A DNA stretch of 64,000 bases, taken from the NCBI GenBank assembly GCA_028713535.1, contig JAQTOC010000001.1, positions 49,573-113,572 on the forward strand. The letters run 5' to 3'. The notes below the pieces were generated by a model that worked only from the letters and a program-made list of their open reading frames with translations, had not been told where the DNA came from and ran no database searches. Position numbers and translations under genes: made by a program. Position 1 is the stretch's first letter; the number at the start of each line of letters is the position of its first letter. Below, piece after piece: positions 10,901-32,561 of the stretch. This stretch comes from Candidatus Nanoarchaeia archaeon. GTDB taxonomy: Archaea; Nanobdellota; Nanobdellia; SCGC-AAA011-G17; JACPNG01.

Positions 10901-12273
10901 AAACTTTGGTCAGGGATATTGCTAAACTTTGGGGTGTCATTCACAGGATAGACGGTTATGTTCAATGTTGCTGAATCTGAGGCTGAATCTGAATCTGAGG
11001 TAATTAAAATTGTGTTTATGCTTCCGGTTTGTGTTTCTGTTGTGCATGTCAGGTTCATTATTCCTGTATGGAAGTCTATGTCAAAACAGCTTAAGGTGGT
11101 TCCTGCAGCATAGGTGTAATTTAAAATGTCATTTGTATCTGGATCTGTTATGTTTTCTGAAAGATTATAAGTACATATCTGGTCTTCGTAACATTCCCAA
11201 GGAGGCTGTATAAATCCGCTAACGTCCTGAGTTATTACTGGAGCTGTATTTGAAATTGTAAATGTGTCATTTGCCTCCAAGGTCGTATAGACTGTATCTA
11301 CACAAGTAGCGTTAAAGTAGAATGTTCCCTTTACATTAAAGGTTCGGTTGTATTCAAATAACTGGGAAAATTCATTGAATACCATTGCTGTTGGGGTGCC
11401 ATAATCTCCTGTCAGGTTAAAATTTACACTACAAGTAGCAGTTGTATCGTTAATTGTTATCTCTCCTGTTGAGTTTGTGTAGTTTGCAAAGAAAAATGCG
11501 TTTGTTCCAGAATACAATGTGAGGGTGTCATTTTCCGGATCTGATGAATCCCAGAGTGTAAGATTGGAAGTATCAGGAAGACCTCCTGCGTATGCTGTAA
11601 AACCATAAACTGTAAATGTAACATAATCTCCATTGACTTCAAATGGAATGTCTGTTTCAACCCACTCATCACACTTAGCCTTGCTAAAATCATAGTTTTG
11701 GCAGTGATAGATTGCGTTTATTTTATCATAAGCTTTTAATGTTAGAGTTGCGTTTTCTATTGAAACTTCCTTGCTTAAAGAAAGAACTTCGGTTTTAATA
11801 AAAGATTCCTGGGGCTGGGCAACTTTTATCTTGAGATCTGGAGGGATTTTCTTTATTCCTCTGATTCTAGCTTTAGGTGTGCTATCTTTAGAATCTTTTT
11901 CCTGGTCTAGGTATAAATCAATCACATTTGTGTCTGCGGTTTTTTCTATGTTGTAACTAAGAGGCTCAGTTGATTCTATCTGTATTGGATCTGTTGCTAT
12001 TGAAAATCCTGTATATGTCTTAAAGAAGAACAAACCCAGCAAGAATATTGCGAGTATGAAAAAGACTTCAAGGCTTGGGAGTTTGTTTTGTACTACATCT
12101 TTTTTTTCATTTTCAACATCGCCAAGATAGATGTTTTTTACTTTTCCATCTGGCCCTCTTACAGATTTATACAGATATGGACCGTAGAGTTTACCACCTT
12201 TTTTTATGTATCTCTTATGAACCATCAACGACCTCTTTTTATGTAGTACAACTAAAATAAAATAGAAATACAA
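7921..12273 (-). CDS. giant (up to 1450 aa) surface protein with cadherin-like repeats, N-terminal signal-anchor and C-terminal TM anchor
   Basis: Repeated (V/I)NDAP/VNDNP/VNDRP cadherin-type motifs; TM LPSLEVFFILAIFLLGLFFF near the N-terminus; Gly12 linker; C-terminal TM LPLFLLELVAMAFILFIAY + RRRKNKI; many N-x-S/T sequons. Alternative start ATG at 12225 (MVHKRY...). Confidence 0.8.
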   Translation of the reverse strand: MYFYFILVVLHKKRSLMVHKRYIKKGGKLYGPYLYKSVRGPDGKVKNIYLGDVENEKKDVVQNKLPSLEVFFILAIFLLGLFFFKTYTGFSIATDPIQIESTEPLSYNIEKTADTNVIDLYLDQEKDSKDSTPKARIRGIKKIPPDLKIKVAQPQESFIKTEVLSLSKEVSIENATLTLKAYDKINAIYHCQNYDFSKAKCDEWVETDIPFEVNGDYVTFTVYGFTAYAGGLPDTSNLTLWDSSDPENDTLTLYSGTNAFFFANYTNSTGEITINDTTATCSVNFNLTGDYGTPTAMVFNEFSQLFEYNRTFNVKGTFYFNATCVDTVYTTLEANDTFTISNTAPVITQDVSGFIQPPWECYEDQICTYNLSENITDPDTNDILNYTYAAGTTLSCFDIDFHTGIMNLTCTTETQTGSINTILITSDSDSASDSATLNITVYPVNDTPKFSNIPDQSLIEDTAYTYTVSGSDEENDAYSFEDNSSFFEINPSTGLISFTPTNTEVGDHQINISINDSLGCYSQIVRFIISNVNDAPVLDYICDNQTLTEDVDFNCTVNATDVDGNTLTFSLNETWLDINSTGYINVTPTDTDIGEHRLNLTVSDGSLIDSAIINFSVIGVNDAPLITTAENITGYEGITWYYDFNATDGDLDSPGTTEFLTWSINESYITISSSTGIASFTPSLTNVGENWINVTVNDSTGIEDSVIINLTVYANNAPVFTPNTEFSLTEDIEFYFNFTLNATDADNDALFFYSNDSVITINETTGEINITPNDTSVGENWINLSVKDLPGYYVSGIVNLTVINVNDNPNITSRENHTVNEDDTLSYIFNATDEDLNIPSTWEVLTWEDNSSFFDIGSSNGVILFTPTNDSFAGDHFINVTVRDTTGLTDEWIFNLSIYAVNDRPNITSTDQIIGRQDEALVYDVNATDEEDSPEGQNGSLTFNTNTTWANFIINITSGQITFTPNSSQTGIELLNITVNDSLGLEDSRIFTINISDVNDPVTSLLGTPSGNIAGIDENASQAFTVYVNDPDTGQALYYNWYVDNILNVTSITSTQSNAFTYYANYTDEGTHNVTVIISDLTYEASWYWNLTVSNVNAPPEFYAEIANISFNQDTSYTLLNLDDYFRDYDYGDARYNQTLNFTFIQMNETEELKNSTDITITVSNTSNMVTITPRSGWTGYEIVQAILNDSEYEVAANNFSINVTSAVLPTVSVPSAGGGGGGGGGGGATEYVTIDILHPGDVSLFLGERIITPIKVKNTGDVLLSDINLEASASTKDITLNLNKIKIDKLSPGEEVDVDLEIITDKDTKEGKRDITVKAIVSDPSVTDSIKFFVSLLEFGLEDKQLVKEKLRYLKDMLNENPECLELQEYINKADMELATGRFSQAMELTRQGIEGCKEIVLTLQEKEQAQKPTGLSGENLPLFLLELVAMAFILFIAYRFYRRRKNKI
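8591..8627. repeat. 37-nt GC-rich segment (poly-Gly codons) identical to 13004..13040
   Basis: cctccaccgcctcctcctccgccaccgccaccagcgc present in both cadherin-like paralogs (41/42 identical with flanks). Confidence 0.85.
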
Positions 12274-12288
12274 GGTTTTTAAACATTT

Positions 12289-14595
12289 CTAAACTTTTTG
12301 GATAAGTTTACTCAGCTTCCTGTTCAGCTTTCTAATCAATCTGAGCGATCTTCTTTTGTATCTGCCTGAAACCCCGCTGTAGAGCATCTCTATCCTGCTG
12401 CAGGTTGTTTTTGCCTTGGCATATTCTTTGTTTCTTGCTGATATAATAGCATTCTTGTAAAGCTCTTTTATTTTCCTGTATCTTTCTTTTTCTGAATTGT
12501 CCCTTATTGCTGTTAATGTTGTTCCTCTTGGTTTTTTCTTTATTATGGTTATTATTGTTATGATTAATACAAGGATTATTAACAAGGCCCACCAGCTATC
12601 TTTTGGGCAACTAAAGATTTCATTCAGGCTTATTTTCCCATCACCGCAACTTGTCAATGTTTTTGGCTTTTGGATTTCAAAACAAGGCTTGCATGCTCCG
12701 CCGCAGTCAATGTCTTCCTCGTTTTGGTTCTTGATTTTATCATCACAGGTTGGGCATGGCTTGCAAATACCACCACAATCTGCCATTATTTCATTCTGGT
12801 TCTTTATGCTGTCAAAGCAGGTTTCTACAGGAACATAAATACACTCCTGTTCCTCTTTTGGCTTGTAAACAGCAGTTCCGCAGTTTTTGAAATCAGAGCA
12901 TCTTCTTGTCTGGAATCCTTTGTAGTAATTTTCTTTTATGTACAGGCCTGAGTTCTGGCAGGATGACCAATCTGAACAGACCCATGTTTCTGCACATCTT
13001 GCACCTCCACCGCCTCCTCCTCCGCCACCGCCACCAGCGCCTCCGGATGGAGTTGTTGTAACATCGTTGACTGTTACTGTCCAGGTTTTATTCACTGTAA
13101 GAATTCCGTCAGTTGCCATTGCCATGATTGTATGAATTCCTTGGGAGTTGTAGTTTGGACTGTAAGAGTACTGGTTATTTGTTTCTCCGCTTTGTGCAGA
13201 ATCATCAAAGTACCATTGGATTGAAGGAGTTGTTCCATCAGGATCACTTGAAGTTATATTAAATTCCTGGGTTGAGCCTTCGTTCATGGAAAATGAGAGA
13301 GTTGTTGGGTAGTAAGTATCTATTACAGGAGCCTGGCTTGCAGCAGTTATTGTAAATGAAATTATTTCTGAATCTTCTGCACCTTCAGTGTCATTGACTG
13401 TTATGTTTATTGAATAGGTTGCTGCACCTGAATAAGTTGCGTTTACTAATGCAGCAGTGTTATTAACAAATGTTAAGTTCATTATTGTATCATTACTAAT
13501 GAATGTTAATGGGTAATTTTCTTCCTCATCTGTTGCATAAACATAAAATTCCAGTGAATTGCCTGATTCAACTGTTTTTGAGCCTATTGAATCAAGAATA
13601 GGGGGATCATTTACATTAATTATTTCAAACAATACAACCTGAGAATCAAGTGCAGAGCCATCTACTACGTAAATTTCAACACTATAATTTCCTACATCAG
13701 AATAAGTTGGAGTAAAAAGAATTATTCCTGTTTCTTCTGCTATCACAAACAAGGAAGTATTGTCATAGAATTTTATTGCATCGTTATCAGGGTCTGTTGC
13801 GTTTACATCATATTCAAAAAGAACGTCTTCATAAAGTTCATCCCCGCTTTCTATTGTGAAGTTTGGGACTTCTGTAAGGGCTGGAGCATCATTTACATTA
13901 GTGACTGTGAAGTTTATTGTTTCTGAATCGTATAAATTAGCACTGTTTGTTACGTTTATTGTTATGTCGTAAGAGCCAACCTCTGAGTTTGTTGGAGTAA
14001 ATGAGATAACTCCGGTTATGGGATTAATTGTAAATATTGTGGAATCTGAAGCATAGGTAAGATCCAACCCGTTTGGATCTGTGGCATTGATTTCAATGTA
14101 ATATTCCTGGTCTTCTGTTGCTGTTAAGTCTCCAATTGGATCAAGGATTGGACTGTTTGAAATTATTTCAAGAATAAATTCTCCATCTATGTAAGTGTTA
14201 TTTGTATCGCATATTGTGTTGTTTGCCCAGATTGTTATTGAATGGTTTCCTTCTTGGCCTGATGCTGGAGTGAATGAGATTTCTCCACTGGTTGGATCAA
14301 TGCCGAACATGGATGAATTATCTGAATAAACTATTGTGGAACCTGCTGAAGCTGAGGTGTTAATATCATAATAAAATGCTGTCCCTACCTCTCCTGACTT
14401 ATTTTCCAATGAAGGGCTGAATGCAGGAAGTGTGGCTATGCATACTCCTACACTTCCAACTGGTTTTCCTGTTATCTGCTGTATAAAATAAGGGCTTTCA
14501 TTGATTATAGTAATTGTTGACAGAATTGTTGTTAGTATAATAGTTACATATATGAAAGCAAGTGTTTTGTTTGAATTCCACCTCATTTTTATCAT
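12289..14595 (-). CDS. 768-aa surface protein: cadherin-like repeats, poly-Gly hinge, Cys-rich stalk, C-terminal TM anchor and basic cytoplasmic tail
   Basis: N-terminal TM/signal; NVNDAPALTE and NVNDPPILD repeats; GGAGGGGGGGGGGGA; ~30 Cys in CxxC-type spacing; TM WWALLIILVLIITIITII + KKKPRG. Confidence 0.8.
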   Translation of the reverse strand: MIKMRWNSNKTLAFIYVTIILTTILSTITIINESPYFIQQITGKPVGSVGVCIATLPAFSPSLENKSGEVGTAFYYDINTSASAGSTIVYSDNSSMFGIDPTSGEISFTPASGQEGNHSITIWANNTICDTNNTYIDGEFILEIISNSPILDPIGDLTATEDQEYYIEINATDPNGLDLTYASDSTIFTINPITGVISFTPTNSEVGSYDITINVTNSANLYDSETINFTVTNVNDAPALTEVPNFTIESGDELYEDVLFEYDVNATDPDNDAIKFYDNTSLFVIAEETGIILFTPTYSDVGNYSVEIYVVDGSALDSQVVLFEIINVNDPPILDSIGSKTVESGNSLEFYVYATDEEENYPLTFISNDTIMNLTFVNNTAALVNATYSGAATYSINITVNDTEGAEDSEIISFTITAASQAPVIDTYYPTTLSFSMNEGSTQEFNITSSDPDGTTPSIQWYFDDSAQSGETNNQYSYSPNYNSQGIHTIMAMATDGILTVNKTWTVTVNDVTTTPSGGAGGGGGGGGGGGARCAETWVCSDWSSCQNSGLYIKENYYKGFQTRRCSDFKNCGTAVYKPKEEQECIYVPVETCFDSIKNQNEIMADCGGICKPCPTCDDKIKNQNEEDIDCGGACKPCFEIQKPKTLTSCGDGKISLNEIFSCPKDSWWALLIILVLIITIITIIKKKPRGTTLTAIRDNSEKERYRKIKELYKNAIISARNKEYAKAKTTCSRIEMLYSGVSGRYKRRSLRLIRKLNRKLSKLIQKV
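13004..13040. repeat. second copy of the 37-nt poly-Gly-coding segment
   Basis: identical to 8591..8627. Confidence 0.85.
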
Positions 14596-19954: not shown

Positions 19955-22900
19955 TTACATAATCTGTGAGGTTTCGTTTAATTTTACTTCGCCTCCTTTA
20001 TTTATTGTAATGTACTGGCCTAGATCTGTAAAATTAAAGGATGAATTTGTCAGGTATAACTTCCCTGCGTCCTGAATTGTTAGGTTATACAAGAAATTAT
20101 AGGTTTTTTCTATCCAATGGCAGGTTGTATTTAAAAACCAGTTTGAGGCTGGAGGAGTACAAAGATCGATGTTTATAGACTCAACTTCTGTGGAGTTTAG
20201 GTAAACACTGTTGTAAATTATTTCTATGAACAAATCTTTTAGTCCTGATGTTTGAATATTTGGAGTTGTTACATTTGCTTCCCATGCAGTACCGTTATAT
20301 GCAACTTGTTCCTCTGTGAGGTTTGAACAATTTCCTGCTGAGCAGGCATCACAATTTAACCCATAACCACATCCTGCACAACTTCCTATTGCATCGCATG
20401 AAGGATTGGTTTCACTACATCCACATGTAGAGGAACAAGTTCCTGCCTGACAGACATAACTTGTTGTTCCATAACAATTTGCTGCATCCCAGGAACATCC
20501 GCATGTAGAGCAGTCTCCTTGACTTTGTCCGGTACAGGAAGCTGGAGATCCATCGCATCCAGACCAGGTGCAACCCTGAGCTACACATGTTTCTGAAGTT
20601 GATTTGGTAGCACATGCAGAAGGAGTTCCTGTACAGGCATAAACTGCGGTACAATATGTACTACAGCTAAGACAGTTGGCTTCTGTAGAACCTGCACAGA
20701 CAGCGGTACCACCTATACATCCGCCTGGGAGAGGTTCTAGGGTACAACCCTGAGTACTACAACCAGTACATGATGTTCTTGGAATACTCTCACATTCTCC
20801 TTCACCAGTACAACTTGAATATGTCCAGTCACATCCAAAGCTTTCACATGTAGATTGACCTGCTCCTGTGTGAGTTGAACAGGCAGCAGGTGCTCCTTCA
20901 CATCCATCCCAGGTACATCCACAGGTTTCACAATTTGTTTGGCTTGAATCATGAGTATCACATACATCTGGATCTCCTGCACCAGCATCATAACAATTTG
21001 CAACATCCCAAGAGCATCCACAAGAAACGCAACTACCTACGCCATAAGTTGCACACGCAGATGCTGAACCACTACAACCATAAGCTGTGTAATTACATTG
21101 ACTGCATTCATTACAGTTTTTAGTTTCGTTTGATGCTGTACAGTTTAAAGTTCCTGCACATGAATTTGTTTCTGCTATTGTTGCATCTATTCCATCGATG
21201 GTTGCGTTTGTCAGATTTACTCCAGATGTTATTTCTGTTAGATTATAAACATTAAAGAATATTGAAATAATTTCATATGCTGTTGCATTTCTTACAAGTT
21301 CTGTTGTTGGATTCAGGGCAGTTATGTTTGGTTTTTCATAAACTGTGAATGTAACTGAACTTAAATTTTCTAGTCCATCTGTTCCGTTGCTGTAAACAAA
21401 ATAGGTCTGGCTTCCAAGGCTTGGAGACAGACCTGTCAAGTTAGTTCCGCATTCAATTGTTGTATTAATATCTCCGATATTTAATGAATACCAACAAGTA
21501 TCGAGAGCTTCTGTGGTATTTGTAACTGTGTAATTCAGATCGGTAACTTCGCCTTCAACGTACGATGTATTTTCTGGATATGCTATTGCTATATCTGGGG
21601 GAAAATCTGTTATTGTTATGCAATTTCCATCCCATGGAGCCCCGTTGTAATCATATAATTCAAACCATCCTGCAGTATCATTCATTATAGTAGCAATAAA
21701 AGCATCTTTACATAAAACTCCATAGGTATTTGTATCAAATGCTCCTTCCCAAGTTTGGTGGGGAGCATCCAAATCTACAATTCCAGCATCAGATAAACTA
21801 ATGTTTACTACGTTATTAAATGCTGAACCATCTTCAACAAAATCAAAAATAAATATAGTTGAATTACTTCCACCTGTAGTGGCAAAAGTTGTTGCATTTA
21901 ATCTTACAATGGCTATCCCAGTTCTTTTTCCTAATTCCCCTGGTGGCAATGAATAAGGAGTAGAAGCAACGGCTGTTGCATCACTGTGGTTTGCGCTTGC
22001 CAGATAATAATTGGCCTGAGTTGCAGCACTTGTATAATCATAATAATTGACCATGTAATAGTAATTGTTCATTACTGCGACCCTAACATTTCCAGCTGCT
22101 CCGGCACCAACGTCTACTACATAGGAAGATGATCCTTGGTTGTATTCTGTTCTTGTTTTAACTATAATATCATCAAGGTTGTTATCATAGTAACTCTGGA
22201 CTACATTAATCCTGCCTACTGCACCACCATCTTTCATACAACAATCCCCGTGAACCTGAGAGTTTTCATCTCCAGTACTTTGTATCGCACTTATATTTGA
22301 ATTAGCGAATGTGACGGTGTTAGTGCCAGTATATAAAAATCCCCTTGCCCTAATCATATTATCATTGTTATTTATCCATTCAATTACAAAATCTGTGGAG
22401 TTAACAACAACTATATTATTGCTTCTATCATATAATCCTGTAGTTGTATCAGCAGTAGCTCCATTTAATTTTGTTCCAGAAGAAGAACCCCCGTTTAACA
22501 TTCCTGCAATATCAAATATCTCAAAATCTATTTGAGTAGCATTTCCATTTTGTCCAACTACAACAAAGGACGTATCATTTAATCCACCAATATCAACTGG
22601 ATGGGAAGTACATTGTGCTCCTGTTGTGGAAAATCCAAATGTTGTTTCCCATGTAGAACCAATCTGAGTTCCGTTAACATCAAATACTGCAATGTGATAA
22701 ATATTATCTATATCATTACACCATGCCATTGCAACATAAGAATTGTTTAAGATTGTGACTGAGGCCTGGGTATCTGTATTTGTTGCTGTGGTGAATATGG
22801 CTGTTCCAAACCCAATCAGAACTTTTTGTTCTGGGATTACCTCATCAACATGGACTTCTATGGAACTTTCCTCCAGGAAGTTTATCTGGGAGATATTTGT

Positions 22901-23338
22901 AGATATTTTGTTTCCTTCAGTCCTAACAGGAAGTTTGTCCAGATTGTCAAAATCAGAAATTACTTCTTCAAGAGATTTTTCTGTTGATAGATAATTATCC
23001 TTTAAGTCTGATATACATCTTATTTTTTCTTCATCAAATTTAGACTTGCAATTTTCTATTTCTTTTTTTATTATTTCTTTTGGTTTTATTGTGATTATAA
23101 ACGTGTTTTTATCGTTTTGGATAATATTGAAGTCCAGATATGCTTCAAAATAGTCTTGTTTTTCAACTTGCATTCTTAAGTTTTTTTCTGGGAATTGTGT
23201 GAATAGTTTTGGAGAGGTTTTGATGACGTTGGTTGTTGTTTCTTTGTATTTTAGCAGGAGAATTATAATTAATATAATAAAAATAGTGATTGCTAATAAA
23301 AATAGTATTTTTTTCTTATTGAGAGGATTTTTGGTCAT
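19955..23338 (-). CDS. giant 1127-aa surface protein with N-terminal TM anchor and Cys-rich (CxCGC[ST]WD) module
   Basis: MTKNPLNKKKILFLLAITIFIILIIILLL TM; ~70 Cys concentrated in residues ~770-1000; start 1 nt after stop of upstream giant gene. Confidence 0.75.
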   Translation of the reverse strand: MTKNPLNKKKILFLLAITIFIILIIILLLKYKETTTNVIKTSPKLFTQFPEKNLRMQVEKQDYFEAYLDFNIIQNDKNTFIITIKPKEIIKKEIENCKSKFDEEKIRCISDLKDNYLSTEKSLEEVISDFDNLDKLPVRTEGNKISTNISQINFLEESSIEVHVDEVIPEQKVLIGFGTAIFTTATNTDTQASVTILNNSYVAMAWCNDIDNIYHIAVFDVNGTQIGSTWETTFGFSTTGAQCTSHPVDIGGLNDTSFVVVGQNGNATQIDFEIFDIAGMLNGGSSSGTKLNGATADTTTGLYDRSNNIVVVNSTDFVIEWINNNDNMIRARGFLYTGTNTVTFANSNISAIQSTGDENSQVHGDCCMKDGGAVGRINVVQSYYDNNLDDIIVKTRTEYNQGSSSYVVDVGAGAAGNVRVAVMNNYYYMVNYYDYTSAATQANYYLASANHSDATAVASTPYSLPPGELGKRTGIAIVRLNATTFATTGGSNSTIFIFDFVEDGSAFNNVVNISLSDAGIVDLDAPHQTWEGAFDTNTYGVLCKDAFIATIMNDTAGWFELYDYNGAPWDGNCITITDFPPDIAIAYPENTSYVEGEVTDLNYTVTNTTEALDTCWYSLNIGDINTTIECGTNLTGLSPSLGSQTYFVYSNGTDGLENLSSVTFTVYEKPNITALNPTTELVRNATAYEIISIFFNVYNLTEITSGVNLTNATIDGIDATIAETNSCAGTLNCTASNETKNCNECSQCNYTAYGCSGSASACATYGVGSCVSCGCSWDVANCYDAGAGDPDVCDTHDSSQTNCETCGCTWDGCEGAPAACSTHTGAGQSTCESFGCDWTYSSCTGEGECESIPRTSCTGCSTQGCTLEPLPGGCIGGTAVCAGSTEANCLSCSTYCTAVYACTGTPSACATKSTSETCVAQGCTWSGCDGSPASCTGQSQGDCSTCGCSWDAANCYGTTSYVCQAGTCSSTCGCSETNPSCDAIGSCAGCGYGLNCDACSAGNCSNLTEEQVAYNGTAWEANVTTPNIQTSGLKDLFIEIIYNSVYLNSTEVESINIDLCTPPASNWFLNTTCHWIEKTYNFLYNLTIQDAGKLYLTNSSFNFTDLGQYITINKGGEVKLNETSQIM

Positions 23339-23339
23339 T

Positions 23340-26300
23340 TTAGTTTACCTTAAAAATTAAATCAGTTCCGTCAAAGTAGATCATGGCGTTGTCCTCGTCC
23401 CCCAGGTAAATTATATCATTGGTTTTTACTTTAACACCCTGGGCTGTAATGTTGTTTGTTACATTGAGATTTGCAGGGAATACATAGTCATTTGCAGTAG
23501 TGCCAAAGGTTCCATTTACTATCTTAGAAGGATTTATTTCTGCTGAAGCATTTATATCTGCGTTATTTATTTCTCCGCACGTTAAAACTCCTGCCTCGGT
23601 CTTTAGCACACAGGATGTGAAACTATCTAGATATAACCCCTGGGTGAAGTTAGTGTCTGTTTCAAAGGTCTGATTTATTGTAAATATCTGGCTGTTATTC
23701 AGGTATGATACATTTACATTGTCAAATGGAATATCACCTACAATGTGAGTTGTTAATGAAGCGTTATTCTCAGTTGTTTCTTTCACTAAGTTAGTCAGAG
23801 ATATATTATTTTCAGTAACGGTTGTGTTTACTCCTTCTATTGTGATGTTTATTGCGGTATCATCAAATGCGGTTGTATCATCTGTTGTACAATATAGATT
23901 TCCTCCTGTATCTGTGCTAACTACATCACAACTAGTTAAATTGCTTAGGACTGGAGAATACATCATTGAGGTTTGGCTATCAAAGGTTATGTCTCCAGTA
24001 AAGTTCTGAGTGTTGTTTAAGTAGGAAACATTTACATTGTCAAATGGAATATCCCCTGCAATGTGGGTTGTTAATGAAGCGTTATTCTCAGTTATTTCTT
24101 TCACCAAGTTGGTCAGAGATATATTATTTTCAGTAACGGTTGTGTTTACTCCTGTTATGGTTATGTTTATAGATCCATCATCGAAAGAGCCTCCGGCATC
24201 GTCTGAACCACAAACCAAATTACCCCCTGCATCTGTATCAATTGTATCACAGCTTGTTAAATTACTTAATTTAGGACTTGAATCAAATATTATTGTTTCA
24301 TTTGTAATCTGCACTGGTCCATTGAATGTTGCAGTCTGATTTGTAAATGCCACATTTGTTAAATCACTACCTGTTCCTGAATCATCTGAGCCACACACTA
24401 AATTTCCTTGGCTGTCTGTATCAATTGTATCACAGCTTGTTAAATTACTTAATTTAGGACTTGAATCAAATATTATTGTTTCATTTGTAATCTGCACTGG
24501 TCCATTGAATGTTGCAGTCTGATTTGTAAATGCAACGTTTGTCAAATCATCGCTTCCACCCAAATCAGTTCCACAAACCAAGTTACCCTGGGAATCTGTA
24601 TCTATTGTGTTACAATTAGTTAAATTGCTTAATATAGGGGAGTACATCATTGAAACCTGGCTGTCAAAGGTTATGTCTCCAGTAAAGTTCTGAGTGTTAT
24701 TTAAGTAGGATACGTTAATACTATCAAACTGTACATCACTTGCAAGATGGGCTGTTAATGAAGCGTTATTTTCAGTTGTTTCTTTTACTAAGGCTGTTAA
24801 TGAGGCATTGTTCTCAGTTACTGTTGTGTTAACTCCAGTTATTGTTATGTTTATAGATCCATCATCGAAAGAGCCTCCAGCATTATCTGAACCACAAACC
24901 AAATTACCCCCTGCATCTGTATCAATAGTATCACAGCTTGTTAAATTACTTAATTTAGGACTTGAATCAAATATTATTGTTTCATTTGTAATCTGCACTG
25001 GTCCATTGAATGTTGCAGTCTGATTTGTGAAAGCTACATTAGTTAACTCTGTTGAACCTGCTCCAGTATTGTCTGAACCGCATACTAAGTTACCCTGAGA
25101 ATCTGTATCTATTGTGTCACAACTTGTTAGATTGCTAAGAACAGGACTTGAGTCCATAATAATAGTTTCATTAGTAATATGAACTGGACCTGTGAAGTTA
25201 GCAGTCTGATTTGTAAATGCTACATTTGTAAGATCTGTTGAACCTGCTCCTGCATTATCAGTTCCACAAACTAAATTTCCTTCTGAGTCTGTATCTATTG
25301 TGTCACAACTTGTAAGATTACTTAATTTAGGAGTTGAGTCAAATATTATTGTTTCATTAGTAATATGAACCGGACCTGTAAAGTTAGCAGTTTGATTTGT
25401 GAAAGCTACATTTGTTAAATCGCCACCAGCACCTGAATCTGTTCCGCAAACTAATACGCCAGATGTTGTTTTTAATGTGCAGGATTCAAAACTATCCAGG
25501 TATAAATTTCCTGTTAAGTTTGTATCCCCCTGTACTGTCAATGAATGTGTTGGAGATTCACTTCCGATTCCTACTTTATCGGTTGGGTTTGATAAAGTAA
25601 CTGAACCTTCTGACCTGTTCCATGCACTTGAATTTAGAGTTTCTGAACTTCCTCCTGTAAGCCAAGATGGAATGTTTACTATTTCTGAATTCCAGTCTAC
25701 ACATTGTGTACAAGATAGATTATAAGCGATGTCTGCAACAAATGAATAAGGACTTGAAGTCATGTTTACTCTTGGAGTCATTTCTGAATCACCTGAAACT
25801 GTTATTCCGAGATAATACCCTTTGTCAAAACTAAGATTTATTGGCTGGTCTAATCCAAGAGTTGCTGAATAAATCCCGTTTGAAACAGGAACTGTCAAAC
25901 TTTCTTCCCATAAACCAGAACCTCCGCTGTAAACATCATATACCTTGAATAACATTACAGTGTCGCCGTTTACGCTTGATCCTGCTGAATCTGTAAGCTT
26001 ACCATGGACGCTTATTGTCTGAGGGAATTCTGAGGCGTAGTTGTAGGCGTTTGCTGACTCTGTTCCAAATGTTATTTTTAGTATATGAGAGCCGGTTCCA
26101 AGAACTTCTGAGGTTTCTTTTGATGATTCTGAGCAGGCATAACTTGGGACAAACACTTTTCCGTTTGTCAATGAAGAAGTTATCACTGAGTTTCCGCATT
26201 TTAAGTTTATGAAATCTAGGTCTTTTGAAAATGAGGTTCCTTCAATGGGTTCAATTGTAAGGTCTGCTGTCCCAAAAGTCTGGAAGTTAACTTCCCAATA

Positions 26301-27302
26301 ATCCCCTACCTGAGGGTAGGACTGAATGTTTAATACTGTTAGATTACTTCCAACATAACCTGAAAATGAATTTACCTTAAATGTTATTGAATCTCCGTTG
26401 TCTGTAAATGGAATTGCTGTTTTATCCCAGCTTGGACAGTAGCCTGATTCTGGGTTGAATGAAGGGCATTTCAAGATTATGTTTACTGTGTCGTATTTTG
26501 GAAGTGTGATTGTTGCTTCCTCAATTTCCACTGAGGGGAATGCAAACACATCTGTTGTGAATCTTGGGTCGTTTACTGTGTCAAGGAAGCTTACTATGTT
26601 TTCTGATTTTAATCCTTTTATGTTAATTTCTGCCTGATTGTTTTTTCCTTTTGACAAAAGTGCTATTGCGTCTGGAGAGGTTTTAAGAGTTAACTCATAG
26701 CCTTTTTCTGTTTCTTTTATTTCCTGATTTAGCTGTTTTCCTTTCTGGACTAGATTTATTTTTGAGGTTTTGTTTGTTTCTGTTATGTTTGTAATATTTT
26801 CCTCAACGGTAATGTTTTCTTCTACTGGAATCTCAATTATTTCAGGAACTGGAATTTCTATTGTTGTATTTTCATCTTCTGGAACGCTTATTGTTATGTT
26901 TTCATTTGTTTCATTTAATTCTATTATTTCTGGCTGAGCAGGTAGATCTTCCTGGGTTACTGTTACTTTCTTGCTATCAATAACAACTCCGTTTACAATT
27001 AAATCAATATAGGCTTCTCCTGGCTCTGAGATGTTGTAGTCTTCTAAGTTGATTATTATTTTATTGTCTTTTACTATTTCACTTAATGGAACATCTTTTA
27101 TGTAATTGTTTAAAGTAAATCTTACTAAGGTATTTTCAACCGGAATTGTTTCATTGTATTCAAACTCTACTAAACCAACTACGTTTCCAAGATATTCAAA
27201 CATGTTGAAATAATTAAGAACAATTGCTGCAAGGATTATTATGATCACTACTACCAATGGATATTTGTTTTTCTTTTTGTAGTTAATCTGGTTTACTTTC
27301 AT
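23340..27302 (-). CDS. giant 1320-aa N-terminally anchored surface protein with long, near-identical internal tandem repeats (fibre/adhesin-like)
   Basis: MKVNQINYKKKNKYPLVVVIIIILAAIVL anchor; 61-aa repeat LTNVAFTNQTA.F.GPV.ITNETII.DS.P.LSNLTSCDTIDTD..GNLVCG.D in several copies inside 228-aa super-repeats; very high N-x-S/T density. Confidence 0.75.
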   Translation of the reverse strand: MKVNQINYKKKNKYPLVVVIIIILAAIVLNYFNMFEYLGNVVGLVEFEYNETIPVENTLVRFTLNNYIKDVPLSEIVKDNKIIINLEDYNISEPGEAYIDLIVNGVVIDSKKVTVTQEDLPAQPEIIELNETNENITISVPEDENTTIEIPVPEIIEIPVEENITVEENITNITETNKTSKINLVQKGKQLNQEIKETEKGYELTLKTSPDAIALLSKGKNNQAEINIKGLKSENIVSFLDTVNDPRFTTDVFAFPSVEIEEATITLPKYDTVNIILKCPSFNPESGYCPSWDKTAIPFTDNGDSITFKVNSFSGYVGSNLTVLNIQSYPQVGDYWEVNFQTFGTADLTIEPIEGTSFSKDLDFINLKCGNSVITSSLTNGKVFVPSYACSESSKETSEVLGTGSHILKITFGTESANAYNYASEFPQTISVHGKLTDSAGSSVNGDTVMLFKVYDVYSGGSGLWEESLTVPVSNGIYSATLGLDQPINLSFDKGYYLGITVSGDSEMTPRVNMTSSPYSFVADIAYNLSCTQCVDWNSEIVNIPSWLTGGSSETLNSSAWNRSEGSVTLSNPTDKVGIGSESPTHSLTVQGDTNLTGNLYLDSFESCTLKTTSGVLVCGTDSGAGGDLTNVAFTNQTANFTGPVHITNETIIFDSTPKLSNLTSCDTIDTDSEGNLVCGTDNAGAGSTDLTNVAFTNQTANFTGPVHITNETIIMDSSPVLSNLTSCDTIDTDSQGNLVCGSDNTGAGSTELTNVAFTNQTATFNGPVQITNETIIFDSSPKLSNLTSCDTIDTDAGGNLVCGSDNAGGSFDDGSINITITGVNTTVTENNASLTALVKETTENNASLTAHLASDVQFDSINVSYLNNTQNFTGDITFDSQVSMMYSPILSNLTNCNTIDTDSQGNLVCGTDLGGSDDLTNVAFTNQTATFNGPVQITNETIIFDSSPKLSNLTSCDTIDTDSQGNLVCGSDDSGTGSDLTNVAFTNQTATFNGPVQITNETIIFDSSPKLSNLTSCDTIDTDAGGNLVCGSDDAGGSFDDGSINITITGVNTTVTENNISLTNLVKEITENNASLTTHIAGDIPFDNVNVSYLNNTQNFTGDITFDSQTSMMYSPVLSNLTSCDVVSTDTGGNLYCTTDDTTAFDDTAINITIEGVNTTVTENNISLTNLVKETTENNASLTTHIVGDIPFDNVNVSYLNNSQIFTINQTFETDTNFTQGLYLDSFTSCVLKTEAGVLTCGEINNADINASAEINPSKIVNGTFGTTANDYVFPANLNVTNNITAQGVKVKTNDIIYLGDEDNAMIYFDGTDLIFKVN
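23900..25450. repeat. intragenic direct tandem repeats (183-nt unit; 684-nt super-unit) inside 23340..27302
   Basis: 24233-24352 and 24416-24535 are identical over ~120 nt (offset 183). 24160-24345 vs 24844-25029 are ~97% identical (offset 684 = 228 codons). Further diverged copies lie near 24600, 25110 and 25290. Confidence 0.8.
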
Positions 27303-28029
27303 TTCTTAGTTTCCTCCAGAGCCTTTTGTTTTATGAGAAATTCCAAGCCATGGCTTCTGTTTGCAAAGATTTTTTGGGAGATTTTTTTATCTAGCCAGTC
27401 CAGAAGATCTTTGTCCAAAGTAACTGTAATCCTCTCTTTCATTAACTACATACTCCGTAATACTTTAGTGTATATTTGGTTATATATGCATATTGGGTAT
27501 GTAGTAGTTTATAAAGGTTTCTGGAGGGATGTATCCTAGAGCAGATCTGGTTCATAATTGAGGAGGTAGAAAGACCCTTTGAAGAATTAAAGAAGTTGAT
27601 TGGGCTTTTTTATCTTAATTCTTAATAGCGTTATCCAAAATAAAAAGGTAAAAAATAGCAATGTTTAAAAATTTGGAAAAGGAATATAATAGATGGAAAC
27701 AAAAGAAGCATTTATTGTAAACTGTAGCAAAGAAAGCAAATCCTCTGATTTCGTATGGTTTGTAAGACACAAAAAAATAAGAGACGGAAAAGCAGTACCA
27801 GTAAATAGAGGTTCATTAGAGCATTATCTTACAGAAAATAGAAAAAAGATAATGTGAACTGTTTTTGGGTATTGTCTAAACTGTTGGCTTAGCTTAGGTG
27901 GTCAAATGCGTGGCTTATGGATGTTGAAAAGATCTGAAGATGGGACGTTTAAAGAAATGAATTTTGATGAGTTTATAAGAAGAATTATTATTCAAAACCT
28001 ATTTAAAACAATAATCTTCTAAGAAACAT
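27303..28029. promoter_or_regulatory. 727-bp divergent intergenic region (promoters of the minus-strand surface super-operon and the plus-strand membrane-protein genes)
   Basis: Largest non-coding gap in window; several A/T-rich TATA-like stretches (e.g. ttatatatgcatatt at ~27480); contains only micro-ORFs. Confidence 0.3.
27693..27857 (+). CDS. possible 54-aa small protein in the divergent intergenic region
   Basis: METKEAFIVNCSKESKSSDFVWFVRHKKIRDGKAVPVNRGSLEHYLTENRKKIM; below ORF-track cutoff. Confidence 0.2.
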   Translation: METKEAFIVNCSKESKSSDFVWFVRHKKIRDGKAVPVNRGSLEHYLTENRKKIM

Positions 28030-29010
28030 ATGAAGAGGTGGATTTTCAGCTTTATTTTTATCTTGTTAATCAGTTCTACAGTTTATGCAGCTACAGATAG
28101 ATTAGTTGTAAGGTTTCATTCAACAGCAGAAAAACAGGACATTGACTTAAAATTATACTTGGGAAAAGCTCCAATGTATTATTACAATGCAACGCAAAAG
28201 AACGTTATTATTACAATTGACCAGGAAGGAATTGCGCATATAACTTCTAGGTCTGGATTTGAGGGTGTAGAAACAATAATATTCTCTACAAATGAAAGCG
28301 CAATATATGAAAAACAACCGCAGAAAGAGGATTATACTTTTCTTGAAAATTTAACTGAGACAATGATTGAAAAATATCCTACATTGATAACTGACAGGGA
28401 AATCCAGGAATCTTTAGGAGAATCTTTAGTTGACGAAATTCTTCTGAAAAGCATAAAAAAAGCTGACCTGGAAAAAGTCACGTCTGAAGTAAAAGAAGAA
28501 GAGTTAATGGTAAATGTAAATGATGAAGCATTAGTTTTGGTTTCTTTTGAAAACCAGACCAAGCCAAAACTTACTATAGTATTATTTGATGAAGATGCAA
28601 AAGTTGATGAAAATGCATTGAAGCCAGATTACAAGTCTTACATCTTAGGAGGCTTAATTATTATATTTGTTGGGTTTTTAATGCTATACAGAGACAGAAT
28701 ACTGACTTATTTCAAAAAGACAAGATACAACCTAGTAACAAAGAAAAAAACACTAAATCAAAAATTAAATCAAGCAAGCACAGGAAGAGAGATAAAAGAC
28801 GTTATGGAAGATATGTTCAAAGAGAAATTTGGACTGACAAGGTATTCAACTCCTTATGAGACTGAACTAACACTTAATAAGTATAAAATAAAAGGAAACT
28901 TGAAGCAGGAAATTCTTTTTCTATACAGGAAGTTCAATGAAGAACATCTTTCAAAATATGAGGTCGAACTCATCAAGAAATATCTCAAGAGATTAAACAA
29001 AAAGCTTTAA
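28030..29010 (+). CDS. membrane protein: signal peptide, ~190-aa ectodomain, one TM, basic cytoplasmic tail
   Basis: MKRWIFSFIFILLISSTVYA; TM ILGGLIIIFVGFLMLY; Lys-rich tail. Confidence 0.55.
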   Translation: MKRWIFSFIFILLISSTVYAATDRLVVRFHSTAEKQDIDLKLYLGKAPMYYYNATQKNVIITIDQEGIAHITSRSGFEGVETIIFSTNESAIYEKQPQKEDYTFLENLTETMIEKYPTLITDREIQESLGESLVDEILLKSIKKADLEKVTSEVKEEELMVNVNDEALVLVSFENQTKPKLTIVLFDEDAKVDENALKPDYKSYILGGLIIIFVGFLMLYRDRILTYFKKTRYNLVTKKKTLNQKLNQASTGREIKDVMEDMFKEKFGLTRYSTPYETELTLNKYKIKGNLKQEILFLYRKFNEEHLSKYEVELIKKYLKRLNKKL

Positions 29011-29034: not shown

Positions 29035-31281
29035 ATGAGAAAGGGGTTTTGGATTGTCTTTTTATTGTCTATTGAATTAGTAAGCGCGCAGGAAGTCATG
29101 ATTGGAGGAAAAAGCTATTCATTATTATTTATTTCTCCTTTGATTGTTGTTGGATTAATCATATTATTTTTCCTGTTTTCATTTCTATTAAAGAGAATTT
29201 CAAAAGTAAAACTCCCAAGCTTAAAACTAAAAGAAAAGCACATTAGCTTATTCAGCAAGAAAGAGGAAAAACTTGGATTAGGAACTGTATTTGACATAAA
29301 CAAGGAACTTGAGGAGTTTGAGAAAAGAGCAAAGAAACTTGAGACAAAAGAAGCGTTTAACGAGCTTATTGGATTGTTAAAGGATTATCTTTCATATAAA
29401 TTAGGAATGAGCAAGCAGTTTACATTTGAGGAGATAGAGCCAATTCTTGAGAAAAAAGCAAAGAAGTTTGTTCCTTTATCAAAAGAAATTGTGCATTTGA
29501 GGTACAGCGGGAAAGAAATAAACAGGGAAGAGGTAAACAAACTAATTGATTCTTTTAGCAGACTGGCAAGATCTGAAAAAGCTGAGAAACCAAAAGAAGA
29601 GAAAGAAAGAAGAATAACATTATTTGACAAGATTGACATTAAGAATGTCGGCTTAAAAAATTTAAGAGTTTCTTTTAATAATTTATTCAAAAGAACAAAG
29701 GAAAAACAAAGGCCTGTTGTTCTTGGGTTTAAGGTTAAGGATCTTAATATTGAGGTCACAAGAAAACACAGCAAGTTTAATCCTGTTAATGTTTATTATG
29801 AATTAAAAGATTATCTTGAGAAAAGAAAGAATGAAAGCAACAGGGATTTAGTAGAGAGACTTATTAGAAGAGGAAGAAGAACTGTAAAAAGAGACTGGAT
29901 GGATGCAAGCAGGATTTACAACAAGGCATTAGGGATTTATTACAAGATTCCGGTTTCTGATGAAGAGAAAGTTGCTGGTTCTTTAATTGATTTATATGGG
30001 GAAGTGGAAAGGGCAAAGCTTGATGAAGAAAGCAAGCACATGGCAGAGATCACAGAGAAAATACAGGGAATACTTGAGAAGCAGGGAATTGTAAAAGAAG
30101 AGCCTGAGGTTGAAATTGTCAAGCACAGCCATGAAAGCGTCAAACACGTAAGAAAATCTGTTTTGGAATGGAGAAACAACTTAAGCAAGAGAGTTGAGGA
30201 CTTAAAGGGAGCTGTTAAAACAAAGTTCAAGGACATAGAAAACGATGTGGAAAAGGATATTCATTTATTGTTTATTAAGCCAAAGACTGAAAACAAACCA
30301 CTGAGCCATGAAAAACTCAAGAACAATCTAAGGACTTTAAAAGTTGATATACCTAAACAACATAGAGATAAATTATTTACTTTTGAATTACCTCAGAAAG
30401 AAATCTCAAGGATATCCAATGATATAACCAAGAAGAAAATACACGCTGCAAAAGGAAAGGAGTTTAGTTTACCAATATTGAAGGCTGAAAATCCGGTTTT
30501 GATTAAACTGCAAGAATTTGGAGATCACATACATGCAATTGAAAGAGAAGGTTTGGTTGAATTAAAATTAAGAGAGAGAGAACTTGCCAAAGGATTAAGG
30601 GCAATTTTGCATTTCCATAAAAGAAGGCATGACGAGCATGAACTGCCTATTGAAAGATTTGTTTTGGGAAAAGAATTACAGCCTGTTTATGATTCATTGC
30701 CTTTGGTAGAAGAAAACAAGGAAAAAGTTAATTCCTTACTGATGCAGAAAGAGAAATTACTTAACAAATATAAAAGAGCACAGATTGAGGCAAAGAAAAA
30801 ATACATTGAGCATTTGCTTGGCAGGATTGATGACTATGAAAGAAGAAGGATTGATGTCATAAGACAGGAAATAAAGAAGCCTGTTGTCAAGATAAGAAGC
30901 AAGAATGTGGATGAGCTCAGGAAACAGGAACAGGACATTATGGACAGGCTTGTTGGCTTTGAGAAGAAAAAGATGGAAGACATAAAAGGGAACATAAAAG
31001 AATCAATAAGAGAATTTGAGAAAGAAGAACACAGGATTGGAAAGCCTGAATGGAAAGTTGAGGCTGAGAGAGCAAGGAGCAGAGTTTCAAGAAATGTCAA
31101 TGCATTAAGCAAACAGGAAAAAGAGTTATTCAACAAGCTGACTAATGTGCAGAAAGATGTAAAACTGGTTGAGCCTGCATGGAAAACAAAACTGAATAAT
31201 GAAAAGAAAAAAACAACAAAAGATATTGAGAAATTAAGCAAGGAACAGGCAAAACTGTTCAAGAAAATTGATGGACTTTAA
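29035..31281 (+). CDS. membrane-anchored 748-aa Lys/Glu-rich coiled-coil protein
   Basis: Signal + TM (LLFISPLIVVGLIILFFLFSFLL) followed by ~690 aa of charged heptad-like sequence. Confidence 0.6.
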   Translation: MRKGFWIVFLLSIELVSAQEVMIGGKSYSLLFISPLIVVGLIILFFLFSFLLKRISKVKLPSLKLKEKHISLFSKKEEKLGLGTVFDINKELEEFEKRAKKLETKEAFNELIGLLKDYLSYKLGMSKQFTFEEIEPILEKKAKKFVPLSKEIVHLRYSGKEINREEVNKLIDSFSRLARSEKAEKPKEEKERRITLFDKIDIKNVGLKNLRVSFNNLFKRTKEKQRPVVLGFKVKDLNIEVTRKHSKFNPVNVYYELKDYLEKRKNESNRDLVERLIRRGRRTVKRDWMDASRIYNKALGIYYKIPVSDEEKVAGSLIDLYGEVERAKLDEESKHMAEITEKIQGILEKQGIVKEEPEVEIVKHSHESVKHVRKSVLEWRNNLSKRVEDLKGAVKTKFKDIENDVEKDIHLLFIKPKTENKPLSHEKLKNNLRTLKVDIPKQHRDKLFTFELPQKEISRISNDITKKKIHAAKGKEFSLPILKAENPVLIKLQEFGDHIHAIEREGLVELKLRERELAKGLRAILHFHKRRHDEHELPIERFVLGKELQPVYDSLPLVEENKEKVNSLLMQKEKLLNKYKRAQIEAKKKYIEHLLGRIDDYERRRIDVIRQEIKKPVVKIRSKNVDELRKQEQDIMDRLVGFEKKKMEDIKGNIKESIREFEKEEHRIGKPEWKVEAERARSRVSRNVNALSKQEKELFNKLTNVQKDVKLVEPAWKTKLNNEKKKTTKDIEKLSKEQAKLFKKIDGL

Positions 31282-32561
31282 TTTTTTCTCATTTTCATAA
31301 ATACATAATTCACAGGATTTTTTAATTTTTTACACAAAGGATCATCGCAATTAATACCTAGATCCTTGTAATAAGCTTCATTATCGCAGTTTGGAGGCAG
31401 TATATTTTCTTTTGTTTTTCTGTGCCAGGAAATCTGGCTGAGAATATAACCTGTCCTTAATGGCTCGTAGTTATTATTGTTCCATTCTAATAATCTTTTT
31501 TCTATTTCATCAAGAGACCAGCCCATCTGCTTCAGGAAGTTAATCAAAACGAAAACAGCTCTTTTCCTTCCGTCTTTTTCAATTCCTTTCAATATCTGCT
31601 TGATGCATGGAGGAAAATAATCTTCCTTTATTGCAACTTTTGGAATTTCAAAATCTCTTTTTATCTGGATGTTTTCCTTGGATGTTAAAATCTCTTTCAT
31701 GTATTCCTTGTTTGACCTTACTTTGAAATCCATTGCCTGGATTATCAAGGACTTTGCTTCATCAGGCTCAAAAGATTTAAGGAATTCTATTTCAGGCTCA
31801 ATATTTTTCATCTGCGCATTGTTTATGTTAAAACTTCTTGGATCTTTTACAGGGATACTTATTAGGTTAGTTTTTTCATTTATAGAATATGCAGACCTGT
31901 ACAAATGCCTTGGAGATATTAAAATAGAATCTATTCCAATGACTGAGAAAGGATCAAACACATTGTTTCTTATTAAATCCTTTTCCTCTTTCTTTGTGCT
32001 TTTTTTTATTTCATCAATCGTATTTAAACTTAATATTGATTCTGACAATGGCTTTCTTATCATTTCTTTTAGATATTCTGAAATTGCCCTTATTCCATCT
32101 GGGAATAAACATTTTGTTTCTTTTTCATCCACCTTTCTTGGGAATGAGTTTGAGGAAATTCCAATATGAAAGCCAGAACCGCCTGAAAACTTGGAGTAAA
32201 CATGGTTAACATCATGAAATTTTATTGCTTCTATCAACAAAGACGCACAGACTTTGGAATATTCAATGAATTTTGTGTCCACATCAAGGATGCAGTCCCA
32301 GCCAATCCTTAAATCATTTAATTGCTGGGGGGTCATGCTTGGCTTTAACTGCATTGGGTCTGACCAGGTCTCTTCTGAAATATGAAAAGAAGTAACTCCC
32401 TGCTTTGCGAGTTCAAGAACATCTGATTCGTACATTAAAATATCTGGGCGCTTGCCAAATCCTTTATTGTAGAACTGAACGCCAACTTCCTTGTTCTTTG
32501 CCTGGGAAACTATATTATTCTGAATTTCCCTTCTTGAATAATACTTTAGGATTGGATCCAT
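31278..32561 (-). CDS. priS: DNA primase, fused catalytic small subunit (PriS) + PriL C-terminal Fe-S-domain-like module
   Basis: PriS motifs ILDVD and SGGSGFHIGI; C-terminal PPCIKQIL (PriL PPC motif) plus Cys pair NCDNEAYYKDLGINCDDPLC. Confidence 0.75.
   Translation of the reverse strand: MDPILKYYSRREIQNNIVSQAKNKEVGVQFYNKGFGKRPDILMYESDVLELAKQGVTSFHISEETWSDPMQLKPSMTPQQLNDLRIGWDCILDVDTKFIEYSKVCASLLIEAIKFHDVNHVYSKFSGGSGFHIGISSNSFPRKVDEKETKCLFPDGIRAISEYLKEMIRKPLSESILSLNTIDEIKKSTKKEEKDLIRNNVFDPFSVIGIDSILISPRHLYRSAYSINEKTNLISIPVKDPRSFNINNAQMKNIEPEIEFLKSFEPDEAKSLIIQAMDFKVRSNKEYMKEILTSKENIQIKRDFEIPKVAIKEDYFPPCIKQILKGIEKDGRKRAVFVLINFLKQMGWSLDEIEKRLLEWNNNNYEPLRTGYILSQISWHRKTKENILPPNCDNEAYYKDLGINCDDPLCKKLKNPVNYVFMKMRKN

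Follow-up and report, generated by a model that had tools for sequence, protein, structure and literature searches.

A 64-kb stretch of contig JAQTOC010000001.1 from a Candidatus Nanoarchaeia archaeon (the window, meaning the whole of the DNA that was analysed) carries a gene for a protein of 1320 amino acids (aa) whose central part is built from in-frame repeats. We conclude, with a probability of roughly 0.6, that this gene encodes an N-terminally anchored, heavily N-glycosylated modular stalk or fibre of a surface protein of a DPANN archaeon (class Nanoarchaeia), and that the stalk is slowly remodelled by recombination among its own modules. The 1320-codon open reading frame (ORF) is intact on the minus strand and is the first large gene of a long minus-strand run, a cluster of surface-protein genes. 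Its coordinates and those of the other features discussed below are collected in Table 1.

The protein begins with its sole hydrophobic segment; in a Kyte-Doolittle scan, 19-residue windows scoring above 1.6 begin only at aa 10–21, and the segment at aa ~14–35 is a predicted N-terminal signal anchor or signal peptide. The chain contains 24 cysteines and 61 N-x-S/T sequons, compared with 30 ± 4.7 in composition-matched shuffles. A linker rich in Asn, Thr, Glu and Ile leads into a region (aa 225–516) that AlphaFold2 models as all-beta, with approximately three sandwich domains and a mean predicted local distance difference test (pLDDT) score of 75.5. A Foldseek comparison of this model with the PDB returned generic Ig-like folds (Big_2, shaft pilin, FnIII and antibody domains) at E ~1e-4, and a homology search with aa 225–560 found beta-sandwich relatives only. 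The last sandwich, at aa ~425–516, corresponds to a module with the pattern 'QGKLTD...YYLG...SEMTPR', which also occurs N-terminally in proteins bearing a Peptidase_S74 domain and is common to P0006 and P0163, both of which carry PF13884. The protein closes with a conserved 75-aa domain that has a pN (proportion of non-synonymous differences) of 0.04–0.12 between orthologues, finds no family in Pfam or NCBIfam and is the putative distal tip. A pilin or pilus-tip assignment was considered and rejected, as a class III signal motif is not visible at the N-terminus.

Between the Ig-like region and the C-terminal domain, nine modules (u0–u8) fill aa 568–1245, and each closes with a Cys-bounded, disulfide-competent loop of 12–14 residues. 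Seven of the nine end in C-[DN]-[TV]-[IV]-[DS]-T-D-x-x-G-N-L-[VY]-C, with the general form C-D-T-I-D-T-D-x-x-G-N-L-V-C-G-x-D, while u0 and u8 carry a 12-residue variant, C-[TV]-L-K-T-x-x-G-V-L-x-C. The short, A-type modules each contain three to four conserved N-glycosylation sequons. The three B-type modules (u4, u7 and u8) consist of an insert of ~45 aa followed by an A-like core. The original prediction, made from the letters of the window, had described in-frame modules of a surface protein, and this description holds: the repeat units are protein modules, all repeat offsets (183, 186, 318, 501 and 684 nt) are multiples of 3, and the protein consensus that it quoted fits units u1–u3, u5 and u6. 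In a model of u1–u4, built from a 9-row alignment of shifted repeats, the only confident element is a helix at aa 814–854 (pLDDT 70–77), which is the insert of u4. Its heptads read VTENNAS LTALVKE TTENNAS LTAHLAS, with Asn at position d in every second heptad. Such N@d layers are typical of trimeric coiled coils, and the insert heptads give a hint, although no more than that, of a trimeric coiled coil.

At the DNA level, the array contains a small number of near-identical tracts. At an offset of 183 nt, u6 and u5 share an exact run of 119 nt; the predicted identity of 24233–24352 with 24416–24535 was accordingly borne out at 119 of 120 positions. At an offset of 684 nt, a pair of ~250 nt and ~97% identity had been claimed, of which the identity stands (181/186 or 97.3% for 24160–24345 against 24844–25029) but the length does not: the best segment is 185 nt long with 4 mismatches (97.8%), and identity falls to 87% when the pair is taken over 24110–24380. 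A 101-nt core is the same in three units, starting at 24244 (u6), 24427 (u5) and 24928 (u3; 24928–25028), and the tract at offset 501 extends over 113 nt with 1 mismatch. We found an additional tract of 126 nt and 95% identity between the helical inserts of u8 and u7. The 30-mers that occur twice in the window are almost confined to the 1320-aa gene, and a 119-nt exact repeat within 64 kb cannot be due to chance. The description of the repeats as near-perfect is apt for these local patches but not for the array. Tandem Repeats Finder (TRF), run on 22000–29000, called one array (period 186, 2.9 copies, 79% matches, 24875–25421) and otherwise an 18-nt unit in 1.9 copies, and codon-aligned unit pairs are 72–92% identical in DNA, most of them 72–83%. 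Tracts of at least 100 nt of identity are shared by only three of the nine units, and the remaining six have no long identical tract.

The substitution pattern gives the age of the array. For most A-unit pairs the proportion of synonymous differences (pS) is 0.56–0.79, which is at or near saturation, with a pN of 0.08–0.14 and a pN/pS of ~0.15. The pair u2/u5, for example, differs at 29 synonymous and 7 non-synonymous codons. Since synonymous sites are saturated and pN is low, the array is for the most part old, maintained by purifying selection and not the product of a fresh expansion. For comparison, the orthologous N-terminal halves of the protein, described below, have a pS of 0.57–0.64 and a pN of 0.21–0.24. 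Lower values are found for u3/u6 (pS 0.19, pN 0.04), u5/u6 (pS 0.38, pN 0.04) and u3/u5 (pS 0.44, pN 0.09). Recent exchange is visible among u3, u5 and u6, between u3–u4 and u6–u7, and between u7 and u8. Its homogenised tracts of 113–185 nt cut across unit boundaries and have diverged flanks; in the 684-nt register, the 97.8% block borders stretches with 20–25% mismatches, mostly at third positions. Identical third-codon positions are clustered in all three comparisons, with longest runs of 33–39 and P <= 2e-4 by shuffling (P = 2e-4 for the 684-offset tract). Because the tracts cross boundaries and a core is common to three units, the mosaic is what gene conversion within the gene, or unequal recombination, would leave, and it does not fit one clean duplication. 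Of the recent or ongoing expansion and contraction that had been predicted, what stands is therefore recent exchange between some units, within an array that is mostly old.

Close relatives of the full protein were limited to P0001 (1225 aa) and P0002 (1118 aa), both hypothetical proteins from 'Candidatus Nanoarchaeia archaeon' metagenome-assembled genomes (MAGs), and a genome scan matched only the two contigs L002 and L001 that carry the orthologous loci. Among the three species-level orthologues, colinear alignment is limited to the first ~545 aa and the last 75 aa, and the middle fails to align. There are nine Cys-loop units in the window protein, nine in P0001 and six in P0002, and the order of the units and the proportions of the loop flavours differ. 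The nearest neighbour of each A-type unit of the window protein always lies within the same protein (88–100% over the core), and most A-type units of P0001 are also nearest to units of P0001; unit pairs that match across proteins are u0 with P0002 u0, P0001 u5 with P0002 u2, and P0001 u6 with P0002 u3. Moreover, each orthologue has a young, non-adjacent unit pair of its own, at 91% nucleotide identity in L002 and 94% in L001 (97% over 162 nt). As the number and order of modules vary between the orthologues, each of which possesses a young pair, module turnover is a recurrent, lineage-specific trait of the gene over evolutionary time.

Three other explanations of the repeat pattern were weighed. 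An artefact of assembly or polishing, in which the exact tracts or the unit number would come from collapse or expansion of repeats or from consensus homogenisation of multi-mapped reads, is conceivable because the exact repeats of 119 nt and 101 nt (three copies) are longer than commonly used assembly k-mers and the window appears to be metagenome-derived, its closest relatives being MAGs. We consider it improbable. The ORF runs unbroken, in frame, from one conserved terminus to the other, the edges of the tracts lie inside coding units with no anomaly of frame or sequence, and the tracts hold mismatches (4 in 185, 1 in 113), unlike a simple collapse; in addition, the two independently assembled orthologues are alike, each with its own non-adjacent pair at 91–97%. 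We regard as less credible still the idea that a super-unit was recently duplicated once (u3-u4-u5 to u6-u7-...) and that the copies then diverged in the ordinary way, gene conversion playing no part. The 684-nt register does persist for ~500 nt at 81% (413/507) and the A-B order of units recurs, but divergence in this register is strongly heterogeneous (185 nt at 97.8% beside stretches with 20–25% mismatches), one event leaves unexplained why u5, too, carries the identical core, at offsets 183 and 501, and u5 (A-type) and u8 (B-type) do not correspond.

The last alternative, a hypervariable, contingency-like locus, would have recombination between the identical tracts change the unit number frequently in the population, so that diversifying selection would act on variants in length or antigenicity. 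The protein is predicted to be surface-exposed from its N-terminal hydrophobic segment and sequon excess, recombination at the in-frame identical tracts (offsets 183, 501 and 684) could add or remove 61, 167 or 228 residues, and the orthologues vary in unit number and order. Nevertheless, this explanation is as improbable as an artefact. Short perfect-unit tracts (homopolymers to ~9 nt) were not found by TRF in 22000–29000, nor is one evident in the upstream intergenic sequence, and on/off switching by frameshift is impossible with every repeat offset a multiple of 3. Six of the nine units have no long identical tract in common with another, the pN/pS of ~0.15 indicates purifying and not diversifying selection, and the differences between orthologues have built up over a divergence of pS ~0.6. 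The contingency-locus-like behaviour put forward in the original prediction is thus unsupported, with no simple-sequence tract, all offsets in frame, most unit pairs at a pS of 0.56–0.79 and identical tracts of at least 100 nt confined to three of the nine units. Hypermutability does not follow from the presence of a few near-identical patches in an array; here, the analysis of synonymous sites shows the array to be mostly ancient.

We therefore favour a slowly remodelled stalk. In this protein, a predicted N-terminal membrane or signal anchor is followed by the linker, the three Ig-like domains, the nine modules and the 75-aa C-terminal domain. The modules would form an extended, glycan-coated stalk, possibly a trimeric fibre made of beta modules and short coiled coils in alternation, and this stalk would keep the conserved C-terminal tip at a distance from the membrane, where it could touch another cell or a surface. 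With identical tracts of 101–119 nt, an occasional in-frame change of ±61, 167 or 228 residues would be possible, such that remodelling would be slow and driven by recombination rather than by a programmed high-frequency switch. The earlier suggestion of a length-variable adhesin or fibre stalk is consistent with the orthologues having different numbers of units (9, 9 and 6) in different arrangements, and with links to fibre proteins (co-occurrence with Peptidase_S74, and the viral contig L014), but it does not extend to fast variability.

Several points weigh against this interpretation. The model of u1–u4 reached a mean pLDDT of only 41, and for this reason the module fold, the oligomeric state and the fibre itself can only be inferred. 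Peptidase_S74 (PF13884) is absent from the 1320-aa protein in the Pfam scan. Adhesion or host contact is suggested by the architecture and by analogy with the lifestyle of cultivated DPANN archaea. A scan of metagenome contigs for strain-level copies found none, and the unit number given here, like the sequence across the 101–119-nt exact repeats, is that of the assembly. Finally, gene conversion and partial re-duplication are not fully separable from a single sequence.

The repeat had been described as belonging to no assignable family, and our searches agree: it is unmatched in Pfam, NCBIfam and the PDB, and PHROGs gave no functional assignment. In the 1320-aa protein, Pfam returned BNR_4, SBD and A_amylase_dom_C at sub-threshold or marginal level, with no stretch above threshold alone, NCBIfam returned no match, and PHROGs matched two families of unknown function over 19–26 residues each. 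The PDB gave no match either by sequence or with a profile of 78 Cys-loop sequences. For the repeat unit, none of the catalogued Ig-like repeat domains (Big_x, PKD, fn3 and Cadherin-like) scored above threshold. In none of ten other family members did Pfam match over the module, and a literature search for DPANN surface adhesins brought up no mention of the Cys-loop module.

With a profile built from 19 units, a search of 1.84 billion representative proteins yielded 168 matching proteins at E <= 1e-3, of which 40 reached E <= 1e-10; most aligned only with the last ~28 profile positions. In 149 of the 168 proteins we located 356 distinct Cys-bounded loops, 327 with a 14-residue span; the consensus of these 327 instances is L-x-[SN]-C-[DN]-T-[IL]-D-T-D-[AS]-x-G-x-L-x-C-G-[TS]-D. 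Seven of the nine units of the window protein have this family core and two have the 12-residue variant. Most of the loop carriers are large proteins, the longest of 5120 aa, and a signal-like start is frequent among them. Among 61 carriers scanned with Pfam, four contain Peptidase_S74, two Laminin_G_3 and one BclA_C, and the rest are without a catalogued domain. In trimeric tail fibres and spikes, the Peptidase_S74 domain serves as an intramolecular chaperone. A scan of IMG/VR contigs with a degenerate DNA pattern for the loop matched 19 contigs, and nine motif-bearing viral ORFs received no functional assignment and one function-unknown match in PHROGs. The only informative neighbourhood among the motif-bearing viral contigs is that of L014 (IMGVR_UViG_3300032069_000056), where a 1276-aa ORF with several Cys-loop modules (9032–12862, plus strand) directly follows genes for a major head protein (phrog_267, 2.8e-31) and a tail-fibre protein (phrog_10972, 1.5e-17). 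The links through Peptidase_S74 and L014 make a fibre-like role for the module plausible, though unproven. The D-T-D-x-[NSTD]-G segment of the loop resembles calcium loops of the DxDxDG type. A bolder proposal, which we hold to be rather unlikely, is that the Cys-loop module is a new fibre fold, a disulfide-stapled and possibly Ca2+-binding (D-x-D-x-[NSD]-G) beta-hairpin common to ultra-small episymbionts (DPANN and probably the candidate phyla radiation, CPR) and their viruses, and that the gene encodes a fibre for host contact, its reach and surface being readjusted from lineage to lineage through conversion and shuffling of modules.

The protein can be compared with several known systems. 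The alpha C/Rib proteins of group B streptococci, SasG/Aap and Esp are size-variable tandem-repeat surface proteins of Gram-positive cocci. Like these, the window protein combines anchorage and conserved ends with in-frame, domain-sized central repeats, recombination between repeats would likewise alter its length without loss of frame, and unit number varies, in its case between species-level orthologues. An exported, anchored protein with conserved ends is indeed what the hydrophobic segment, the twofold sequon excess and the conservation of the N-terminal 545 aa and C-terminal 75 aa describe. In the alpha C/Rib type, however, units are nearly identical in DNA across the array and deletion variants arise readily, whereas most units in the window are 72–83% identical and only patches of 113–185 nt are homogenised; the alpha C/Rib type also uses an LPXTG anchor rather than an N-terminal hydrophobic segment, and the unit sequences are unrelated. 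Length change by recombination in repetitive surface proteins is well known and is ordinary behaviour. A further comparison is with phage tail-fibre or tailspike-like trimeric fibres that have a C-terminal Peptidase_S74 domain. The Cys-loop module and the 'QGKLTD' beta-sandwich of the window protein are each present in some proteins ending in Peptidase_S74, so that stalk modules are common to it and to members of this class or phage fibre genes (4 of 61 carriers with PF13884; P0006 and P0163; L014), and beta-rich modules are predicted to alternate with a short heptad helix in both. In contrast to these fibres, the window protein is without PF13884, has an N-terminal anchor and is encoded at a conserved archaeal chromosomal position. 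Trimeric autotransporter adhesins of the YadA/BadA type have a mix-and-match stalk of short beta modules and coiled coils, in which module number and order vary between orthologues as they do here, and the heptads of the helical insert resemble their N@d layers. The window protein nonetheless has no detected sequence similarity to them and no C-terminal beta-barrel anchor, and it is archaeal, predicted to be N-glycosylated and furnished with Cys-bounded loops.

Adhesin-like proteins have also been described in methanogenic archaea (PMC11532034). These proteins, together with the products of two Big_9/tandem-95 adhesin-like genes in the same cluster as the 1320-aa gene (7921–12273 and 12289–14595), resemble the window protein as large archaeal surface proteins with repeated beta domains, but they use catalogued Ig-like, cadherin-like and beta-helix Pfam domains, none of which matches the Cys-loop repeat. 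Overall, the 1320-aa protein is probably a repeat-bearing surface fibre or adhesin of a known kind, and its new part is an undescribed module that may be common to ultra-small prokaryotes and some phages.

Table 1. Coordinates, within the window, of the 1320-aa surface-protein gene, its domains and modules, its near-identical tracts and the ORF upstream of it.
Feature	Position	Strand	Basis or remark
1320-aa surface-protein gene	23340–27302	minus	ORF list and translation; syntenic orthologues in two Nanoarchaeia MAGs
Sole hydrophobic segment, aa ~14–35	27198–27263	minus	Kyte-Doolittle scan
Three all-beta Ig-like sandwich domains, aa 225–516	25755–26630	minus	AlphaFold2 and Foldseek
u0, aa 568–622	25437–25601	minus	'LYLDSFxSC-TLKT-xxG-xLxCG' flavour; orthologous to P0002 unit 0
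u1 (A-type)	25257–25436	minus	start of u1–u3 block, aa 623–806; short modules of 60–62 aa
u2 (A-type)	25071–25256	minus	short module
u3 (A-type)	24885–25070	minus	short module
u4 (B-type, 107 aa), aa 807–913	24564–24884	minus	~45-aa helical insert and A-like core with Cys-loop
u5 (A-type)	24384–24563	minus	short module
u6 (A-type)	24201–24383	minus	short module
u7 (B-type)	23880–24200	minus	long module
u8 (B-type)	23568–23879	minus	long module; ends in 'LYLDSF...C-VLKT' flavour
C-terminal conserved domain, aa 1246–1320	23343–23567	minus	orthologue alignment
119-nt exact repeat, u6 copy	24232–24350	minus	same letters as 24415–24533
119-nt exact repeat, u5 copy	24415–24533	minus	pairs with 24232–24350
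684-offset tract, copy 1	24160–24344	minus	spans u6/u7 boundary
684-offset tract, copy 2	24844–25028	minus	spans u3/u4 boundary
126-nt tract	23710–23835	minus	helical insert of u8; partner 24028–24153 in u7 insert
47-aa ORF (MKERITVTLDKDLLDWLDKK...)	27299–27442	minus	stop overlaps start codon of 1320-aa gene (ATGA)

Genes flanking the locus include those for SecY, for prefoldin, for a membrane protein of EMC3/TMCO1-like type and for a primase. The orthologous contig L001 (JAQTMK010000005) is collinear with the window over its own entire length of ~23 kb, with neighbouring proteins 50–85% identical, and this synteny with Nanoarchaeia MAGs indicates that the 1320-aa gene belongs to the chromosome of a DPANN archaeon and has been inherited vertically. 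The primase is a 427-aa ORF (31278–32561, minus strand) in which the Pfam families of both the small and the large DNA primase subunit match, which suggests a fused PriS-PriL primase. Two ORFs lie antisense to the repeat region on the plus strand (24037–24339, 100 aa, and 25399–25725, 108 aa) and most likely owe their existence to the repetitive coding sequence on the opposite strand.

Downstream of the 1320-aa gene, the cluster continues with a 1127-aa Cys-rich protein, exported proteins of 137–412 aa, the two Big_9/tandem-95 proteins and a HerA-like ATPase. The gene for the 1127-aa protein (19955–23338, minus strand) begins 1 nt past the stop of the 1320-aa gene. Its product has an N-terminal hydrophobic segment and C-x-x-C-G-C-x-W-like repeats over ~aa 700–960, matches no family in Pfam or NCBIfam and is only marginally similar to its positional counterpart in L001 (68% over 69 aa, with weak matches elsewhere). 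The segment 6605–19943, also on the minus strand, encodes several proteins of 137–412 aa with N-terminal hydrophobic segments and weak matches to WxLIP_HBD, CARDB, fn3 and Big_10; it terminates with a HerA/FtsK-like ATPase (DUF87), its order is kept in L001, and it may be a dedicated cluster for the assembly of a surface structure. The two Big_9/tandem-95 genes have an exact stretch of at least 30 nt in common (8591–8627 and 13004–13040), possibly another case of exchange between paralogous surface-protein genes.

On the other side of the 1320-aa gene, the 47-aa ORF is kept in both orthologous loci, with 44 of 47 residues identical in L002, and shows weak similarity to ribbon-helix-helix (CopG) proteins (E = 0.018). 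The ~85 nt upstream of it (to ~27505) are almost invariant in the three genomes, in which synonymous sites are otherwise saturated, and include an inverted repeat, ACTACATAC ... GTATGTAGT, that flanks an AT-rich, TATA-like box. Together, the invariant stretch and the 47-aa ORF may constitute an autoregulated promoter/operator for the surface-gene cluster.

The analysis thus provides a sequence definition of an uncatalogued extracellular module, present in ~170 representative protein clusters and some viral contigs, that is suited to domain databases and to structural work. It also makes the 1320-aa gene a candidate for a host-contact fibre within a conserved surface-gene cluster of the Nanoarchaeia, for which little is known of the machinery of attachment.

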